Virus record (IMG/VR): IMGVR_UViG_2693429524_000010
DNA from: a virus
Lineage: Duplodnaviria > Heunggongvirae > Uroviricota > Caudoviricetes
Length of the DNA stretch: 5,200 nt
Direction: 5' to 3' (one strand)
Position numbers and translations under genes: made by a program
Notes under the pieces: model-generated
Seen by the model: only the letters and a program-made list of their open reading frames with translations
Told to the model about the DNA's origin: nothing
Database searches by the model: none
Shown here: piece after piece, positions 1 through 5,200 of the stretch
How the letters are laid out: every line of letters starts with the position of its first letter
Position numbering within the stretch: position 1 is the first letter of the stretch

Positions 1-72
1 ATCCTGACTTTCCAGAACCATACGAATCGCCCGCTGACGGACTTCGGGGGAAAAACGAGTATTTTTAGTCAT
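1..72 (-). CDS. IS3-family transposase OrfA, N-terminal 24 codons (partial, runs off the window)
   Basis: Reverse complement of 1-72 translates [24 protein letters not shown], which matches the N-terminus of IS629-group OrfA proteins as I remember them. A GAGG Shine-Dalgarno sits about 8 nt upstream of the ATG at 70-72. Confidence 0.8.
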
Positions 73-126
73 CCTGTTTACCTCTTTCTCAGGGAGTTTA
101 GTCTCCAGGATTTCCGGGGCGGTTCA
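1..126 (-). mobile_element. IS3-family insertion sequence (IS629/IS1203/IS3411-like), orfA-proximal terminus (IRL); element continues leftward out of the window
   Basis: Reverse complement of 73-126 reads TGAACCGCCCCGGAAATCCTGGAGACTAAACTCCCTGAGAAAGAGGTAAACAGG and is followed directly by the transposase ATG. The terminal 13-mer TGAACCGCCCCGG recurs at 5090-5102, consistent with imperfect terminal inverted repeats of one IS type. The family name is from memory of IS3-group sequences, not a database hit. Confidence 0.8.
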
Positions 127-127
127 A

Positions 128-874
128 CCAGCGTCCGTTGCAACGAAGGCTACGCATCTTTCATTTATAAAGGCCCTACTAAGAGCCGCAGAGCGTGAAT
201 GGAAAATGCTGGATAAGGCACCAATTATTAAAGTGCCTCAACCAAAGAATAAACGGATCCGCTGGCTGGAGCCCCATGAAGCACAAAGGCTGATTGATGA
301 ATGTCCGGAGCCATTAAAGTCTGTTGTTGAATTTGCACTGGCAACAGGCTTAAGACGCTCGAACATCATCAACCTTGAATGGCAACAAATAGACATGCAG
401 CGCCGGGTGGCATGGATAAACCCGGAAGAGAGTAAATCAAACCGCGCAATTGGCGTTGCGCTGAATGATACTGCATGTCGCGTTTTGAAAAAACAAATCG
501 GGAATCATCACCGTTGGGTATTTGTGTACAAGGAAAGCTGTACCAAACCAGACGGAACGAAAGCGCCAACAGTAAGGAAGATGCGGTATGACGCAAACAC
601 AGCCTGGAAAGCGGCGCTGAGACGGGCTGGTATTGATGATTTCAGATTTCACGACTTGAGACACACCTGGGCAAGTTGGCTGGTTCAAGCCGGAGTCCCG
701 TTGTCAGTGTTACAGGAAATGGGAGGCTGGGAGTCTATCGAAATGGTTCGTCGATATGCTCACCTTGCACCTAATCACCTTACCGAACACGCACGGCAAA
801 TAGACTCGATCCTGAACCCATCGGTCCCAAATTTGTCCCAATCAAAAAATAAGGAAGGTACTAATGATGTGTAA
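128..874 (+). pseudogene. Phage-type tyrosine recombinase (integrase), 3' fragment; 5' part removed by the IS insertion at 126
   Basis: ORF track 206-874 contains the tyrosine-recombinase catalytic region ([51 protein letters not shown] with R, HxxR and Y). The same frame stays open with no stop back to position 128, immediately next to the IS terminus ([30 protein letters not shown]...). The protein lacks the N-terminal arm-binding and core-binding region that a complete integrase has. Confidence 0.85.
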
Positions 875-1105
875 CTTATTGATTTAAATGGTGCGATAAT
901 AGGAACAATACACATAGGCGATAAGCTTTGTTTTTGTTGCCTTTTTTATTGTTCATTTTTTATAGATACCCCCAAAAGTACCCCCATATCTTTTTCCGCC
1001 CCTGAAATTTGGTTGTTATTCATACAGCATATCAGGCGGTAACGCTCTCCCTTTAACCCACTTATTGTATGATAGTGCTATCCCACAATAAGGAATCAGC
1101 CAGCC

Positions 1106-1465
1106 ATGAGAATGACCAGCCGCAAAAAAGAGATACTTAGCTACTTTGAACCGGATAACCTCGAATGGGTGACTGGTGAGATTGGTGCGCCGCCGTTCGA
1201 TGTGTCGGGTGTGGCCTACCTGCTTCATGGCATGGTGTCGTTCGATAAGCGTCACCAGCTCGAATCAACCCGGCGCACACTGGAAAGCATGGTTGCTGGT
1301 GGACTGCTTGAGCGGGTGACAGTGTATGAATCGCGCCAGATACGGCGCGGCGGTGAGACTAACGCAACGGTCGTGCGTTACGGTTTACCCGGTCATTGTG
1401 CTGTTATGCGCGATACTGGCGGCGCTGATAACGCAATATCAGGTGAATACATGCGGGTCAGTTAA
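1106..1465 (+). CDS. Hypothetical protein (119 aa), function unknown
   Basis: ORF with AGGA about 10 nt upstream of the ATG. GC-rich codon composition similar to neighbouring genes. Its 3' end overlaps the convergent gene 1458-2000 by 8 bp. No family recognised. Confidence 0.45.
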   Translation: MRMTSRKKEILSYFEPDNLEWVTGEIGAPPFDVSGVAYLLHGMVSFDKRHQLESTRRTLESMVAGGLLERVTVYESRQIRRGGETNATVVRYGLPGHCAVMRDTGGADNAISGEYMRVS

Positions 1466-2000
1466 TAGCCTGCAATCTGTCGTTGATGCGGCTCAGGTCG
1501 TAAACCCGGCGTTCAATATCCAGCATCAGGAAATTGTGGATCTCGGCCTGCTCAGGATTATCAGACTCTCTGGCCTGTAATAGCAATTCATTGTAACCAT
1601 GCAAGCCGCCTGAGTTTTCCGCCGGGGTGGTGCCTTTCCCACGCAGGCAGCTAATGGGCTGATTACTCGTATCGTGTGTTTGCTTCTCCAGCACAATGAC
1701 GCAATCCCACCAGTCGCCAAAGTCATACGTGTAAACCAGCTTGTCACCCTCATTCTGGAGCGCCGCCCATAGTGGCGTGATTGCCGCGTTACCCATGCTT
1801 TCATCCTCACCCCATACGCGATACTCGCTACCTGGATCACCTTTACGCCCTTTCTCGAACATATACAGGTGTTCGTCATTCCAGCCAAAAGCTAACTGGA
1901 TCACGGCATGAAGTTTACTAAAGGGGATTTGCTCTGGAACCAGCACACGCCGCCATATAGGTGGTTTGCTGTCTCGGATGGTTATCTTTAGCTGGTACAT
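1458..2000 (-). CDS. Plasmid pRiA4b ORF-3-like family protein (180 aa)
   Basis: The N-terminus MYQLKITIRDSKPPIWRRVLVPEQIPFSKLHAVIQLAFGWNDEHLYMFE and the downstream YTYDFGDWWD motif match what I remember of the pRiA4b ORF-3-like family (Pfam PF07929). AGGA lies about 6 nt upstream of the start on the minus strand. Confidence 0.7.
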   Translation of the reverse strand: MYQLKITIRDSKPPIWRRVLVPEQIPFSKLHAVIQLAFGWNDEHLYMFEKGRKGDPGSEYRVWGEDESMGNAAITPLWAALQNEGDKLVYTYDFGDWWDCVIVLEKQTHDTSNQPISCLRGKGTTPAENSGGLHGYNELLLQARESDNPEQAEIHNFLMLDIERRVYDLSRINDRLQAIN

Positions 2001-2120
2001 GCAAATCCTGAATAAATGCGAATCGGAAGGATAACGATACTGACGTACTCACAATTCTGTAAAGGTGAATAAAGGAAATTTGCTTAATACGCATAAGTTA
2101 CATGTGGAATAATCCCATAT

Positions 2121-2306
2121 CTACCTGCGCGGCGCTGGCTTCTTCCACTGGTAGGCAGGTGCTCGCATCATTTCGCGGAACCTGTCGCGCCGGGCTATAT
2201 CGGCATTAACTGATCGTTCTATCTCCCGTTGATCTGCCTGTGTAAGCTGGTGGCCTCCGTGCTCAAGTTTGGCGATGGTCAATAAGGCTATTTCGCGTGG
2301 TGTCAT
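2121..2306 (-). CDS. Small hypothetical protein (61 aa) with a basic C-terminus
   Basis: ORF with GAGGG about 8 nt upstream of the ATG on the minus strand. The C-terminal tail is lysine/arginine-rich (QWKKPAPRR). No family recognised. Confidence 0.4.
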   Translation of the reverse strand: MTPREIALLTIAKLEHGGHQLTQADQREIERSVNADIARRDRFREMMRAPAYQWKKPAPRR

Positions 2307-2577
2307 ACGTCATACCCTCTGGAAGGATGAAACACGCCCGGATTAAATTTCATTTTTCGCGGGTATAAAAAAACGATGGGGCGGGCAGTCCCGGATAGTC
2401 AGGCCTGTAGAGATTTGACTACCCCCTCCCCACTGGATTCAGGTTACTGCTATTCCGTTAAGCGATGCTTACGGGGATAGCTGCGTTGTGATTTTGACCA
2501 TTCAGGTCGCCGCTATTTCCTCACCGATTGGGTGCTACGCGTGCGCGTACTTGTCCCGAAATACCAGAAACCGCCAG

Positions 2578-2599
2578 CCAGAGGATGATTTCCCTCTGG
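2578..2599 (-). terminator. Candidate hairpin just downstream of the PerC-like stop codon (weak intrinsic terminator)
   Basis: CCAGAGG (2578-2584) and CCTCTGG (2593-2599) form a 7-bp inverted repeat with an 8-nt loop. It is followed on the minus strand by a moderately U-rich run (GGUUUCUGGUAUUUCGG). The stem is short and the U tract interrupted. Confidence 0.25.
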
Positions 2600-2603
2600 T
2601 GGT

Positions 2604-2885
2604 CTACCTTTGCCTCTTGCCGCCATTTAACCGGAAGGCGTTACCGTTCGGTTGCGCTATCCCCATGCGGTGTTGCGTTTCGGTAACAGCTTTATGCAGG
2701 TCGCCAAATTCCTCAACCTTCACGGGCGGGCGCTTCACGTTCTCCAGACACGTTTCACGGCGGCGCTTTATCCATTCCCGATCATCGTCCTCGGTGCATA
2801 ACAGCATGACTTCCATCCATCGTGCGGCAGCTCTCCGGTATAGCCCTTTTGACTCCAGCTCTTCAGCTTTCCTGTCCCTTATCAT
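2604..2885 (-). CDS. PerC-family transcriptional activator (PerC/Pch-like, 93 aa)
   Basis: The N-terminus MIRDRKAEELESKGLYRRAAARWMEVM resembles the conserved start of PerC and the EHEC Pch (PerC homologue) proteins, and the size is typical for the family. GAGAGG lies about 5 nt upstream of the ATG on the minus strand. Confidence 0.75.
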   Translation of the reverse strand: MIRDRKAEELESKGLYRRAAARWMEVMLLCTEDDDREWIKRRRETCLENVKRPPVKVEEFGDLHKAVTETQHRMGIAQPNGNAFRLNGGKRQR

Positions 2886-2921
2886 TTCTGCCTCTCAGAT
2901 TATATAGATAAGCAAAAAGGT

Positions 2922-2948
2922 GTTGGTTCAGTTGGTTCAGTTGGTTCA
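2922..2948 (+). repeat. Three perfect tandem copies of the 9-mer GTTGGTTCA
   Basis: Read directly: GTTGGTTCA at 2922-2930, 2931-2939 and 2940-2948, head to tail with no spacer. Confidence 0.95.
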
Positions 2949-2991
2949 ATTTGTAAAGAGCGTTGTTTTTATTGTGTTTTTTCTAAAATAT

Positions 2992-3021
2992 TGAACCAAC
3001 ATCAACTCATTTTGAACCAAC
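2992..3021 (-). repeat. Two further copies of the same 9-mer in inverted orientation (TGAACCAAC), 12 bp apart
   Basis: TGAACCAAC at 2992-3000 and 3013-3021 is the reverse complement of GTTGGTTCA, giving five copies of the 9-mer within 100 bp. Confidence 0.9.
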
Positions 3022-3220
3022 AAAAAGTGTCCGTGAACTAACACTCTGTCAAATAGTCACTACATATATTAACGGTGAAGACTAAATCCGCCAGCAAATA
3101 GCTTATATAGCACCGCTTTATGCCGCAGTTATGCTGGAACAGTAATCATTTCACAGAACCGCCTAACTACTATATGGCACCTGCTAAAAAGCACATCAGC
3201 CTAGTCAGTTGATCGGTGCA

Positions 3221-3249
3221 TGGATATCCTAACAATTCAACTATATAAC
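3221..3249 (+). promoter_or_regulatory. Candidate sigma-70-like promoter facing the downstream two-gene cassette
   Basis: TGGATA (3221-3226), a 17-bp spacer, then TATAAC (3244-3249) inside a TATATAA stretch. This is a by-eye match to TTGACA-N17-TATAAT and is only weakly supported. Confidence 0.2.
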
Positions 3250-3318
3250 GTGATCTCCCATGTCGATCTACTGTCATGCAATGATTAACAAACACATAGA
3301 CACATCTGCTTGGCGCAT

Positions 3319-3328
3319 TGATTAATCA
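3319..3328. promoter_or_regulatory. Perfect 10-bp palindrome TGATTAATCA, with a related half-site TGATTAA at 3282-3288; possible operator
   Basis: Read directly. It lies 45 bp upstream of the ATG at 3373, in the AT-rich leader of the cassette. Confidence 0.3.
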
Positions 3329-3372
3329 CTGATCATCCATCAGGATATGCGAACCACCGTCACCAGGTTAGG

Positions 3373-4458
3373 ATGATTCTCAAAAGCCACCTGTATTCAA
3401 TGCCTTTGATGGGTTTCATCCATAGTTATTTTCTCGTGACTGACATGGAGATTTTGATTTCAAGGTGTGCAAAAACTATCGCAGAGTACAATGGAGCTCA
3501 AATGACTGTGGCACCAAAAGATCAAAGTTTGAAATCTGTAAGGGTGGGCTTTTACACAAGCTCTGAGAATATTCGCACTAGTAACAAGGGGTTAACCGCA
3601 GAGGCCTTTAAAAATCTGTATGATCGGTGTTCTAAAGACTTCAAGATGACCCACTATGCAGACTTTGGTGAAAGAGAACTTAAAATTCATTTTCTAGACA
3701 TCTCACCCGAGGATGGCTCCTACTTCGGATTCATGTCTCGAAGAAGAAAAAGCGCAACACTGGCATATATTACAGATAAAGAGTGGGTGGAAGAGAAAAT
3801 CCCTCTAGCCGGGGCAAAGACTCTTTCAGAACGTACATACTTTATTTATTATCCTCAGACAGACATTCTAGTATTGTCTTTAAATCATTTAGGTCCACGC
3901 CATAGTGACTTAGCCTTCCTTCTTTTCAACTCCAGTGATCGCGGAGTCCCTGTTTCTTTTGAAGCCATTTGGAAAGAAGAAAGCATCAAAGAACTACTCG
4001 AAACTGGATCCAATCTAAGAAGCTGCGAGATTTCTGTGGCCATCCCAAGAAACTTCAATGCCGCACAGTATCAACTCGATGGAATGTTCGCGAATCAGAT
4101 GATTGAGATGATCAGAGGCACCAGTTCAAGCCACCTGACTATTTCGTTACGCGGACATTCTCCATTAAAAAGAAAAGCAAAGGGATGGCTTGAGGATGAC
4201 GTTAAAAAAAGCCTTAAGGAGATGCTAGAAAAGTTCCCTGGTGGTGATGGTCGTTTAACTTTTGAGAAAGCAAATGTTGTTGCTCAGGGCGATAAAAAGA
4301 AGAAAAGTCTTGTAGACGAAGTTCTTACGGTAAAGAAGATGGTGCCTATCCAAGCAGATGGGTATCCGACCGATACTGACGTTAAAAATGCTATGCTACA
4401 AGCAAAGAATGACAACCTTAGGTATCTAACCCAGTACTATTTGGTTAGTCAAACGTAA
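3373..4458 (+). CDS. Hypothetical soluble protein (361 aa as the longest ORF); candidate sensor component of a two-gene module
   Basis: Long uninterrupted ORF in about 40% GC DNA with no predicted membrane segments beyond the doubtful first 24 residues. Three possible starts: 3373 (AGG then TAGG upstream), 3445 (no clear RBS) or 3502 (GGAG 6 nt upstream, which I favour). Its stop is 12 nt before the next start. No family recognised from sequence. Confidence 0.7.
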   Translation: MILKSHLYSMPLMGFIHSYFLVTDMEILISRCAKTIAEYNGAQMTVAPKDQSLKSVRVGFYTSSENIRTSNKGLTAEAFKNLYDRCSKDFKMTHYADFGERELKIHFLDISPEDGSYFGFMSRRRKSATLAYITDKEWVEEKIPLAGAKTLSERTYFIYYPQTDILVLSLNHLGPRHSDLAFLLFNSSDRGVPVSFEAIWKEESIKELLETGSNLRSCEISVAIPRNFNAAQYQLDGMFANQMIEMIRGTSSSHLTISLRGHSPLKRKAKGWLEDDVKKSLKEMLEKFPGGDGRLTFEKANVVAQGDKKKKSLVDEVLTVKKMVPIQADGYPTDTDVKNAMLQAKNDNLRYLTQYYLVSQT

Positions 4459-4470
4459 CAGGAATACATT

Positions 4471-4908
4471 ATGAGTTCTCGGAAATTGTTTGCTGCCAAG
4501 TCATTGTTTGCTCTAGCTATGGCTATTGCTGGTGCCCATTTTTTACACGACCTAGATCACAATGCTGTCATTTCGGCTGCTGGTGCTCTTTCAACTATTT
4601 CTGGAGTTCTCTTTGGTTTTGTTTTGGCATCAGTCACCATGCTAAGTAGCTTTGATAGTTCAAAGGGAATTGTAGGCGCTCTAAAAAGTAACGGAGTACT
4701 AAAAGGCATTATTGAGGGGCTTTTTGATACAGGAACTACGCTGATCACAGCCTGCCTATTAGCAATGATCTCGATGTTTGCCCCTGTTGTCAGCAATCTG
4801 CCTCTGGATTATTATGCCCTGCTACTCGCAGGGGCATATTTGATTATATCAATGATAACTTTTTTCTTTAACTGGAAATCTTTATCTAAAATAATAAGTT
4901 ACATATGA
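4471..4908 (+). CDS. Small integral membrane protein (145 aa) with four predicted transmembrane helices; candidate effector
   Basis: Four hydrophobic stretches of about 20 residues each, at roughly residues 6-25, 36-60, 87-107 and 112-133, with an amphipathic loop between helices 2 and 3. AGGA lies 7 nt upstream of the ATG, and the gene starts 12 nt after the upstream stop, suggesting co-transcription. Confidence 0.75.
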   Translation: MSSRKLFAAKSLFALAMAIAGAHFLHDLDHNAVISAAGALSTISGVLFGFVLASVTMLSSFDSSKGIVGALKSNGVLKGIIEGLFDTGTTLITACLLAMISMFAPVVSNLPLDYYALLLAGAYLIISMITFFFNWKSLSKIISYI

Positions 4909-5028
4909 TAAATATTTCAAAATGAGTCCCCCTGCTACGGATAGTCCTTGGCTTAAAAAATACCGTCACCGCTGAATACCCACACAGTGCCCCCATCCAT
5001 TTAGTTGGCATAATGTATTCAACTGATT

Positions 5029-5048
5029 GAGGAATGGCTCCTCTTTTA
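5029..5048 (+). terminator. Weak candidate intrinsic terminator downstream of the cassette
   Basis: GAGGA (5029-5033), loop ATGGC, then TCCTC (5039-5043) followed by TTTTA. The stem is only 5 bp, so this is marginal. Confidence 0.2.
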
Positions 5049-5089
5049 CTACCAAACGGCCATCGCTGGCGCATTCATCCGCTGGTAGT

Positions 5090-5200
5090 TGAACCGCCCC
5101 GGGTTTCCTGGAGAGTGTTTTATCTGTGAACTCAGGCTGCCAGATCATCGTTTCCGATGGAAGCATAATAAGCTTTTTCTGCTTCTGCCGGAGGAGTATG
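5090..5200 (-). mobile_element. IS3-family insertion sequence (same type as at 1-126), orfB-proximal terminus (IRR); element continues rightward out of the window
   Basis: 5090-5134 reads TGAACCGCCCCGGGTTTCCTGGAGAGTGTTTTATCTGTGAACTCA. Its first 13 nt are identical to the inverted terminus at 114-126 and are followed by a similar TCCTGGAGA block, as expected for IRR versus IRL of one element. Confidence 0.75.
5132..5200 (-). CDS. IS3-family transposase OrfB, C-terminal 22 codons plus stop (partial, runs off the window)
   Basis: Reverse complement of 5135-5200 translates HTPPAEAEKAYYASIGNDDLAA, followed by a TGA stop at 5132-5134, just inside the terminal repeat. That placement is typical of IS3-family orfB; identity is inferred from position, not from a recognised motif. 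Confidence 0.55.
   Translation of the reverse strand, partial: HTPPAEAEKAYYASIGNDDLAA

Follow-up and report, generated by a model that had tools for sequence, protein, structure and literature searches.

Does a segment with insertion sequence (IS) ends of one type on both sides behave as a unit, or is it native DNA that was interrupted twice? The question is raised by the 5,200-nt stretch of DNA analysed here (the window), in which 4,963 bp (positions 127-5089) lie between two IS3-family ends, and for which the first-pass annotation had proposed that a cassette and a PerC-like gene may be mobilisable or deletion-prone together.

IS ends and their insertion sites

The left IS end, at position 126, reads ...GGGGCGGTTCA, and IS sequence resumes at 5090 with TGAACCGCCCCGGG... 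(Table 1). Both ends in the window begin TGAACCGCCCCGG..., that is with the 5'-TG expected for the IS629/IS1203 group of the IS3 family, and a repeat search places the terminal inverted repeat arms at 102-128 and 5088-5114 (27 nt, 89% complementary). Positions 1-126 are identical to the last 126 nt of the 1310-bp IS copies at comparison loci L003 and L004 (8962-9087; 0 mismatches, BLAST E-value 9e-62) and positions 5090-5200 to the first 111 nt of the same copies (7778-7888; 0 mismatches, BLAST E-value 2e-53), an identity to IS629/IS1203 ends that is far beyond chance. The name follows the RefSeq/PGAP annotation of these reference copies, which are both on the same strand and described as 'IS3-like element IS1203 family transposase, programmed frameshift'. 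In the left stub, the start codon of orfA is found at 72-70 on the minus strand, 55 nt inside IRL, leaving 24 codons within the stub, the product of which has a weak match to HTH_Tnp_1 (E-value 0.0013, below the Pfam cutoff). The right stub carries only the last codons of orfB, with the stop at 5134-5132 (minus strand). The reference copies possess the orfA HTH, the orfB DDE and the frameshift; the frameshift site and DDE region, together with the IS interiors, the distal ends and their target duplications, fall beyond the window.

Both stubs read on the minus strand, with IRL as the inward-facing end of the left stub and IRR as that of the right stub, and are therefore in direct orientation. 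Coordinates, bases and strand thus agree with the earlier description of 4,963 bp bracketed by same-type IS3-family ends, and the 100% identity and RefSeq names place both termini in the IS629/IS1203 group. What the window holds is two IS stubs, and it is from these two ends (126 and 111 nt) that we infer two copies of the same type, the full elements presumably extending outwards. The copies at L003 and L004 have 39 internal differences (~3%), yet are identical at the ends seen in the window, and IRL-end variants at 94-95% identity exist, the IRR ends of which are 99-100% identical to the right stub. Since isoforms share identical ends and only ends are visible here, neither stub can be assigned to one of IS629 sub-types I, II and III, which differ by 4-5%. 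For homologous recombination between the two copies to be efficient, they would have to be of one isoform.

The uninterrupted (empty-site) sequence of each junction is present in many genomes. On the left, the native site lies in an SfV-type integrase gene and reads ...CACGCCAAA/ACCAGCG (GCCAAA/ACCAGCG, the slash marking the junction). On the right, it lies in island intergenic DNA and reads ...GGTAGT/GGAACTTTTT, the uninterrupted island at L001 and L002 having ...GCTGGTAGT/GGAACTTTTTAGCC. As each IS end interrupts a sequence that other genomes carry unbroken, the earlier view that this is not a single simple insertion stands. The same annotation also drew on the mismatch of the flanking bases. 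The inner flanks do differ (ACC and AGT), but the duplication partner of each copy is distal, so that the difference is informative only with respect to one IS on a circular molecule.

Two further features of the junctions were considered and set aside. A BLAST alignment that reaches 5094 could be taken for a microhomology junction, but is a 4-of-5 chance match (native GGAAC vs IS TGAAC). At L010, an IS600 stops 1 bp from the left junction of the window, beside a 10-bp palindrome at 135-144; an insertion hotspot as a general phenomenon was rejected, the left site being intact in 1271 of the 1283 complete genomes that carry the SfV-type integrase.

Composition of the bracketed segment

As judged from its homologies, the interior is not one unit: it combines a truncated prophage integrase with an att core and a single arm of the island. 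The 'cassette plus PerC' module proposed earlier dissolves into these three parts.

Table 1. Coordinates of the IS stubs, their flanks and the features between them
Feature	Position	Strand	Basis or remark
Left IS stub, IRL-proximal 126 nt	1-126	-	IS629/IS1203-type, IS3 family; IRL ends at 126
ACC abutting IRL	127-129	.	3-bp target duplication of the left copy, candidate half; partner would lie beyond the window
SfV/SfII/SfIV-type thrW-integrating phage tyrosine integrase, 3' two-thirds (248 codons)	127-874	+	Pfam, nucleotide identity
att core common to prophage end and island end	871-904	.	Pseudo-thrW 3' end (TGGTGC-GATAATAGGA, 1-nt deletion) and adjacent flank
Accessory arm of widespread satellite-like island, thrW/yagP locus	905-5089	.	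Homology in E. coli genomes
119-aa hypothetical protein	1106-1465	+	
PRiA4_ORF3	1458-2000	-	Pfam
61-aa ORF	2121-2306	-	
PerC	2604-2885	-	Pfam
Iteron-like repeat region	2915-3030		
Low-GC two-gene cassette, first gene (361/318 aa)	3373 or 3502-4458	+	
Low-GC two-gene cassette, second gene (145 aa)	4471-4908	+	
AGT abutting IRR	5087-5089	.	Target duplication of the right copy, candidate half
Right IS stub, IRR-proximal 111 nt	5090-5200	-	IS629/IS1203-type; IRR begins at 5090

The integrase shares 98.6-99.5% nucleotide identity with int of SfV, SfIV, SfI, SfII and phi458. The complete protein, which adjoins thrW at L003, has 372 aa, and the version in the window is short of ~124 N-terminal codons; its residual ORF (206-874, 222 aa) keeps the catalytic domain (Pfam Phage_integrase, E-value 1.5e-47). 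It is thus a gene fragment and not a complete recombinase, though adjacent to the att core. Phage homology stops at 904 and island homology begins at 871, and the core shared by the two, which was aligned with the true thrW junctions, marks the boundary of two elements integrated in tandem. ARAGORN detected no intact tRNA at the att core.

The island part is common, with matches to 871-5094 at 99.5-100% identity in 31 complete E. coli genomes, and at every locus with a visible chromosomal flank it is located between yagP/paoD (or another mobile element) and thrW. Elsewhere, its context includes P22-type ejection genes, a TOPRIM/DUF927 primase, AlpA and an integrase; here, the island's own integrase, AlpA and primase are beyond the right IS. 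What lies between PerC and the ejection-protein genes varies from locus to locus: Abi_2 at L048, a SIEA-like gene at L054 and the pair encoding 318 and 145 aa in the window. The two cassette proteins found no match in PADLOC, Pfam or NCBIfam and match only PHROG families of unknown function. No replication gene was found in 127-5089 by Pfam and further annotation searches.

Tandem arrays that lack IS elements are collinear with the interior, but the whole interior occurs in no single genome. The genome CP053720.1 carries such an array with an intact integrase, an att and a matching island start, and a related IS-free arrangement is seen in CP024978.1 (L016).

Origin of the bracketed arrangement

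Two independent IS629/IS1203 insertions into a tandem array of mobile elements provide the best explanation, and one that we consider probable on balance. The thrW site of the host chromosome would first have received, in tandem, a prophage (lambdoid or SfV-type) and a satellite-like island; two IS629/IS1203 elements would then have inserted separately by copy-out/paste-in, as is typical of IS3-family elements. The left insertion, after about nt 371 of the integrase gene, would have removed the N-terminal DNA-binding part and disabled the integrase. The right insertion, 181 bp downstream of the island gene for the 145-aa protein, would have cut the accessory arm, with PerC and the two-gene cassette, from the core that encodes the ejection proteins, primase, AlpA and integrase. 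The 4,963 bp between the IS copies would then be native DNA in native order. IS629 is known to favour prophage and prophage-like DNA, where 62% of its copies in O157:H7 are located (PMC3271280).

If each insertion was simple, the distal flank of the left copy is predicted to be ...CACGCCAAAACC (the 5' part of the integrase) and that of the right copy AGTGGAACTTTTTAGCC... None of 5426 complete E. coli genomes contains the corresponding distal junctions (native flank, ACC and IRR; IRL, AGT and native flank), and megablast found neither inner junction in the same set; as the inner junctions are likewise absent, the lineage is not sampled there and the missing distal junctions are uninformative. 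Direct IS repeats are deletion-prone through RecA recombination, and with repeats of ~1.3 kb this could delete the interior, leaving one IS, or release a circle of 6,273 bp. In IEE-positive hosts, excision of an IS or an adjacent deletion would be possible in addition.

There is slightly less than an even chance that the window is more or less a whole short-read contig that ends in a collapsed multi-copy IS, in which case a single IS (on a 6,273-bp circle or in a tandem amplification) or unrelated far sides could lie behind the two stubs. The left stub, of 126 nt, equals 127-1, the overlap of a de Bruijn assembly with k=127, and a contig of 126+4963+126 = 5,215 nt trimmed to 5,200 would give the 111 nt observed on the right; however, SPAdes leaves k (127) and not k-1, and the agreement in length is suggestive only. 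Also, contigs of 2-10 kb are the main carriers of the 361-aa protein (613 of 626 blocks). As to a circle, the stubs represent different parts of the IS, unlike the duplicated-end signature of a circular contig, and one IS on a circular molecule would be expected to show identical flanks and replication functions, whereas the flanks are ACC and AGT and the interior is devoid of a replication gene. These flanks and the two distinct empty sites show that a circle could have arisen only secondarily, via recombination of two pre-existing copies.

A less likely reading is that the IS copies, or one of them, stand at a rearrangement, produced by recombination with other IS629 copies or by IS- or IEE-mediated adjacent deletion, with the 5' part of the integrase, the island core or both displaced. 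Such events have parallels. At L010, an IS600-type element joins integrase position 128 to DNA downstream of ykgJ, all between having been deleted, and IEE-dependent IS629 excision and deletions have been documented (PMC9943667; 10.1101/2023.06.07.543989). IS629 generates target duplications of 3-4 bp, with matching duplications at 21 of 47 sites in O157:H7 and none at the other 26 (PMC3271280); at the loci examined here, 3-bp duplications flank four of seven full-length IS copies and are missing from three. The frequent lack of duplications at both sets of sites implies that secondary IS-IS recombination is common, and one or both copies in the window may border a deletion or an inversion instead of a simple insertion. 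Against this, the window itself gives no direct evidence of rearrangement and its interior is perfectly collinear with native arrays.

An active IS629 composite (compound) transposon that carries PerC and the two-gene cassette between sites is a highly improbable reading of the segment. In its favour, the same-type ends in direct orientation form a valid outer IRR...IRL pair, and compound transposons are known for copy-out/paste-in IS elements (10.1101/2023.06.07.543989). Against it, neither junction occurs in any collection searched, the island part is at the thrW/yagP locus in every genome with flank examined, and the interior keeps its native order, truncated integrase and att scar included, which points to bracketing in situ and not to captured cargo. 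Exact 30-mers of both junctions had no match in the GTDB species representatives, JGI metagenomes or IMG/VR, and an exact-protein look-up with two alternative starts of the junction-spanning ORF found no relative carrying the junction. No IS-bracketed contig was seen among the longest contigs listed for the 222-, 361-, 145- and 119-aa proteins, nor either junction among the IMG/VR relatives of the 318-aa protein. The PLSDB plasmids yielded fragments of the interior only, with no record covering at least 80% of it. In these collections, no unit consisting of an IS, the 4,963 bp and an IS was found in more than one genomic context. The earlier suggestion that the segment is mobilisable as a unit thus finds no support, and we similarly give very little credence to the idea that the IS629 pair captured the satellite-island arm, with its candidate two-gene defence cassette and PerC regulator, and made of it a functional compound transposon or a circle able to excise. 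Were such a capture true, the cassette could spread without relying on the integrase of the satellite itself.

Relation to known elements

With two independent insertions as the preferred origin, IS629/IS1203 ends bracketing island DNA are a feature of an already known kind and an ordinary situation: there is no sign that the segment moves as a unit, and the array is a decaying prophage plus satellite island at thrW. Clusters of IS629/IS1203 in prophage-like DNA are a well-documented source of strain polymorphism and form the basis of IS-printing in O157:H7. Relative to IS629/IS1203/IS3411 (IS3 family, 1310 bp; O157:H7, other STEC and Shigella), the terminal 126 and 111 nt of the window are identical, and the TG-starting ends, the imperfect inverted repeat of ~27 nt and the prophage-like location are all alike, whereas the two insertion sites of the window were not found in any genome searched.

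The IS-flanked remnants of SfV, SfII, SfI, SfIV and SfX prophages in the thrW-proA region of Shigella flexneri and E. coli share the integrase and the att core, which stems from the 3' end of thrW. Their integrase is likewise broken by IS3-family elements at L004, L005, L007, L010 and L014; the first four of these loci carry IS629-type or IS600-type insertions in the SfV-type gene, so that IS decay of this locus is recurrent. However, the insertion at about nt 371 is not common to any examined genome, and the remnants adjoin thrW-proA or gtr genes, while the integrase end in the window adjoins a pseudo-att and a satellite-like island. PICI-like and P4-like satellite islands at tRNA sites (integrase, AlpA and primase) are similar in that 905-5089 is the distal arm of such an island; the island core lies outside the window, beyond the right IS. 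Tn6330 (ISApl1-mcr-1-ISApl1) also has two direct same-type IS ends around passenger genes. In the window, unlike in compound transposons of this type, no outer duplication is seen, the outer ends being beyond it, there is no second site, and the passenger is native collinear chromosome-island DNA with gene fragments.

The finding matters little in itself, and its value is in annotation hygiene. The 222-aa 'integrase' ORF is to be read as a fragment, and the segment as a junction of two mobile elements, not a module, in which the arm with PerC and the cassette is severed from the mobility genes of the island. Provided that the pair of IS copies is genuine, deletion polymorphism among strains is likely in this arm. 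The only private SNP of the window lineage is intergenic, at position 4996.

IS629/IS1203 termini at the window edges

IS DNA occupies both edges of the window (126 nt at the start and 111 nt at the end). Full-length reference copies of 1310 bp each were taken from two annotated genomes (L003, CP088131.1 and L004, CP046527.1), where RefSeq labels them 'IS3-like element IS1203 family transposase, programmed frameshift'; IS629 isoforms include IS1203 (PMC3271280). Window 1-126 corresponds to the last 126 nt of these copies (0 mismatches; BLAST E-value 9e-62) and window 5090-5200 to their first 111 nt (0 mismatches; E-value 2e-53), and a repeat search of the window pairs 102-128 with 5088-5114 as an inverted repeat of 27 nt (89% complementary). 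Since the orfA start and the orfB stop lie on the same strand, both stubs read on the minus strand, with the orfA-end repeat (IRL) facing inward at the left and the orfB-end repeat (IRR) facing inward at the right.

The first-pass annotation had described two same-type IS3-family copies in direct orientation around 4963 bp. Its ends, coordinates, orientation, length and flanking bases are all correct, far beyond chance, though what the window shows is two IS ends rather than two copies. Isoforms with 39 internal differences (L003 versus L004) share both visible stubs exactly, and the isoforms in three further loci (L005, L007 and L014) carry a 94-95% variant of the IRL end and an IRR end 99-100% identical to that of the window (BLAST); published IS629 sub-types are 4-5% apart (PMC3271280). 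Because the stubs are alike across isoforms, the matches (126 of 126 and 111 of 111 nt) show that both ends belong to one IS type, IS629/IS1203 by name, but do not extend this to the sub-type.

The edge lengths suggest that the window is almost a complete contig assembled from short reads and terminated where multiple IS copies were collapsed: the left stub equals 127-1 nt, and a 5200-nt cut from the start of a contig of 126+4963+126 = 5215 nt leaves 111 nt at the right, as seen. For the 361-aa protein of the interior, 613 of 626 blocks likewise lie on contigs of 2-10 kb. A stub left by SPAdes itself, however, would be 127 nt long instead of 126. If the contig reading holds, the full contig would not reveal the distal IS ends. 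Because each stub comes from a different part of the IS, there is no duplicated-end signature of a circular contig. Such an assembly artefact is a separate matter of what the window can show and is compatible with any insertion history.

Coordinates of features in the window
Feature	Position	Strand	Details
orfA start codon	72-70	minus	left stub
Interior	127-5089		4963 bp; abutting triplets ACC (left), AGT (right)
Tyrosine integrase gene, 3' two-thirds	127-874		Pfam Phage_integrase, E-value 1.5e-47
Residual integrase fragment	206-874		222-aa ORF
Accessory arm of very widespread island	905-5089		rest of interior; 119-aa protein, PRiA4_ORF3 protein, 61-aa protein, PerC, iteron-like repeats, low-GC pair (318/361 aa + 145 aa)
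PerC protein	2604-2885		Pfam PerC, E-value 3.7e-30
orfB stop	5134-5132	minus	right stub

Native DNA between the termini

The interior has three parts and is not a cassette-like unit; it is the boundary between two mobile elements that integrated in tandem. The integrase region (127-874) matches int of SfV, SfIV, SfI, SfII and phi458, phages that integrate at thrW, at 98.6-99.5% identity; the intact gene has 372 codons and adjoins tRNA-Thr thrW and proA in L003, and about 124 N-terminal codons have been removed by the left IS. Island homology starts at 871 and phage homology stops at 904, and the overlap (TAACTTATTGATTTAAATGGTGC-GATAATAGGA) combines the 17 nt at the 3' end of thrW, carrying a 1-nt deletion, with thrW flank, and is thus an att core or pseudo-tRNA scar; ARAGORN found no tRNA in the window. 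In the searched collection, 5223 blocks list the 145-aa protein of the island. In uninterrupted genomes the arm is followed by P22-type ejection-protein genes and a TOPRIM/DUF927 primase, and in one locus (L029) the island extends to AlpA and its own integrase. In CP053720.1 there is an IS-free tandem array whose integrase is intact, with att and an island that starts as in the window, and CP024978.1 (L016) has a related IS-free tandem arrangement.

Insertion history

The left empty site in the native integrase reads ...CACGCCAAA|ACCAGCGTCC and is uninterrupted in 1271 of 1283 complete genomes with this integrase; the right one in the native island reads ...GCTGGTAGT|GGAACTTTTTAGCC, where BLAST alignments reach 5094 only through the similarity of native GGAAC to TGAAC, the first bases of the IS. 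These two distinct sites and the mismatch of ACC and AGT bear out the initial claim that the region is not a single insertion. The triplet comparison itself excludes a single insertion into a circle and is of limited meaning otherwise, since with two copies the partner of each duplication would sit beyond the window, at the far end of that copy. Among full-length reference copies, 3-bp duplications are present in four of seven (GCC, TAA, TTT and CAG) and absent in three, which agrees with IS629, for which duplications are 3-4 bp long, a match is seen at just 21 of 47 sites, and prophage-like DNA holds 62% of copies (PMC3271280).

The most likely history, and a reasonably probable one, is in our view that two IS629/IS1203 elements inserted independently into a tandem array of prophage and island. 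One insertion would have inactivated the prophage integrase, and the other would have severed the accessory arm of the island from its mobility and replication core. IS629/IS1203 ends in prophage-like DNA are a textbook situation; the distribution of IS629 in O157:H7 is comparable, as are the IS-ridden thrW prophage remnants of Shigella flexneri.

Recombination between the direct repeats could in general delete DNA or form a circle. In the main rival history, which we regard as rather unlikely, IS-IS recombination or IEE-assisted events have deleted or inverted DNA next to at least one of the two copies. A deletion-type outcome at the same place is seen in L010 (GCA_003015325.1), where an IS600-type element lies 1 bp from the left junction of the window and the ykgJ-downstream DNA beyond it implies a large deletion. 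This different IS3-family element (L010 8664-9922; window 127/128) has the same orientation, with a perfect palindrome of 10 bp (CGTTGCAACG, window 135-144) at a distance of 6-8 bp, and has the ends TGAGGTAGCC.../TGAGGTGTAC..., which we take to be those of IS600. An insertion hotspot was considered and rejected; with the site intact in nearly all the complete genomes that carry the integrase, the proximity looks like coincidence.

An active compound transposon is highly improbable, as the IS-4963 bp-IS unit was found nowhere else in the collections searched and the DNA it would carry as 'cargo' is native and collinear, with a gene fragment and an att scar in it; the suggestion that the segment is mobilisable as a unit is therefore unsupported. 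Neither inner junction is present in 5426 complete E. coli genomes, exact 30-mers of both junctions gave no match in GTDB species representatives, JGI metagenomes or IMG/VR, and a near-identity search of PLSDB plasmids with the whole interior returned fragments only. The complete E. coli genomes, among which the lineage itself is not represented, also lack the distal junctions that simple insertions would have made, and exact-protein look-ups gave no IS-bracketed contig among the matches listed. The window has one private SNP, which is intergenic (4996), so it offers no protein variant specific to its lineage.

Variable slot and repeats of the island arm

The island slot from PerC to the P22-type ejection-protein genes varies among islands, holding the 318/361-aa and 145-aa proteins in the window (3373-4908), Abi_2 in L048 (7933-9352) and a SIEA-like protein in L054 (8030-9921). 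The two proteins of the window have no match in Pfam, NCBIfam or PADLOC and match only PHROG families 7651 and 8552, of unknown function; their region is of low GC (~0.40-0.42), and the 145-aa protein is, judged by eye, largely hydrophobic. One possible reading of window 3373-4908 is a satellite hotspot that holds an as yet uncharacterised anti-phage cassette. In L025 (GCA_964246605.1), the 318-aa gene is broken at window ~3762-3766 by an IS3-family element with a 409-aa fused transposase (7972-9200), further evidence of IS build-up in the island arm; a 5-bp alignment overlap there suggests a 5-bp duplication.

The PerC protein scores 31.1 bits against the NCBIfam ANR (AraC negative regulator) model, just under the cutoff of 32. 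The gap between PerC and the cassette harbors an iteron-like region (2915-3030) with three GTTGGTTCA units at 9-bp spacing followed by TTGAACCAAC motifs. A ~86%-identical inverted copy (L025 17907-17993 and equivalent spots in L026-L035) adjoins the primase gene, about 7-8 kb off, in intact islands; the region could serve the satellite as an origin or as an array to which a regulator binds. In L049, L051 and L054, islands with the 119-aa and PRiA4_ORF3 left arm are found at a second place in the chromosome as well, beside spoT-rpoZ-gmk-ligB and a gene of the glycine-transporter family (PF03458), where they carry a different, D5_N/P4-type primase module; the arm is thus common to mosaic satellites.
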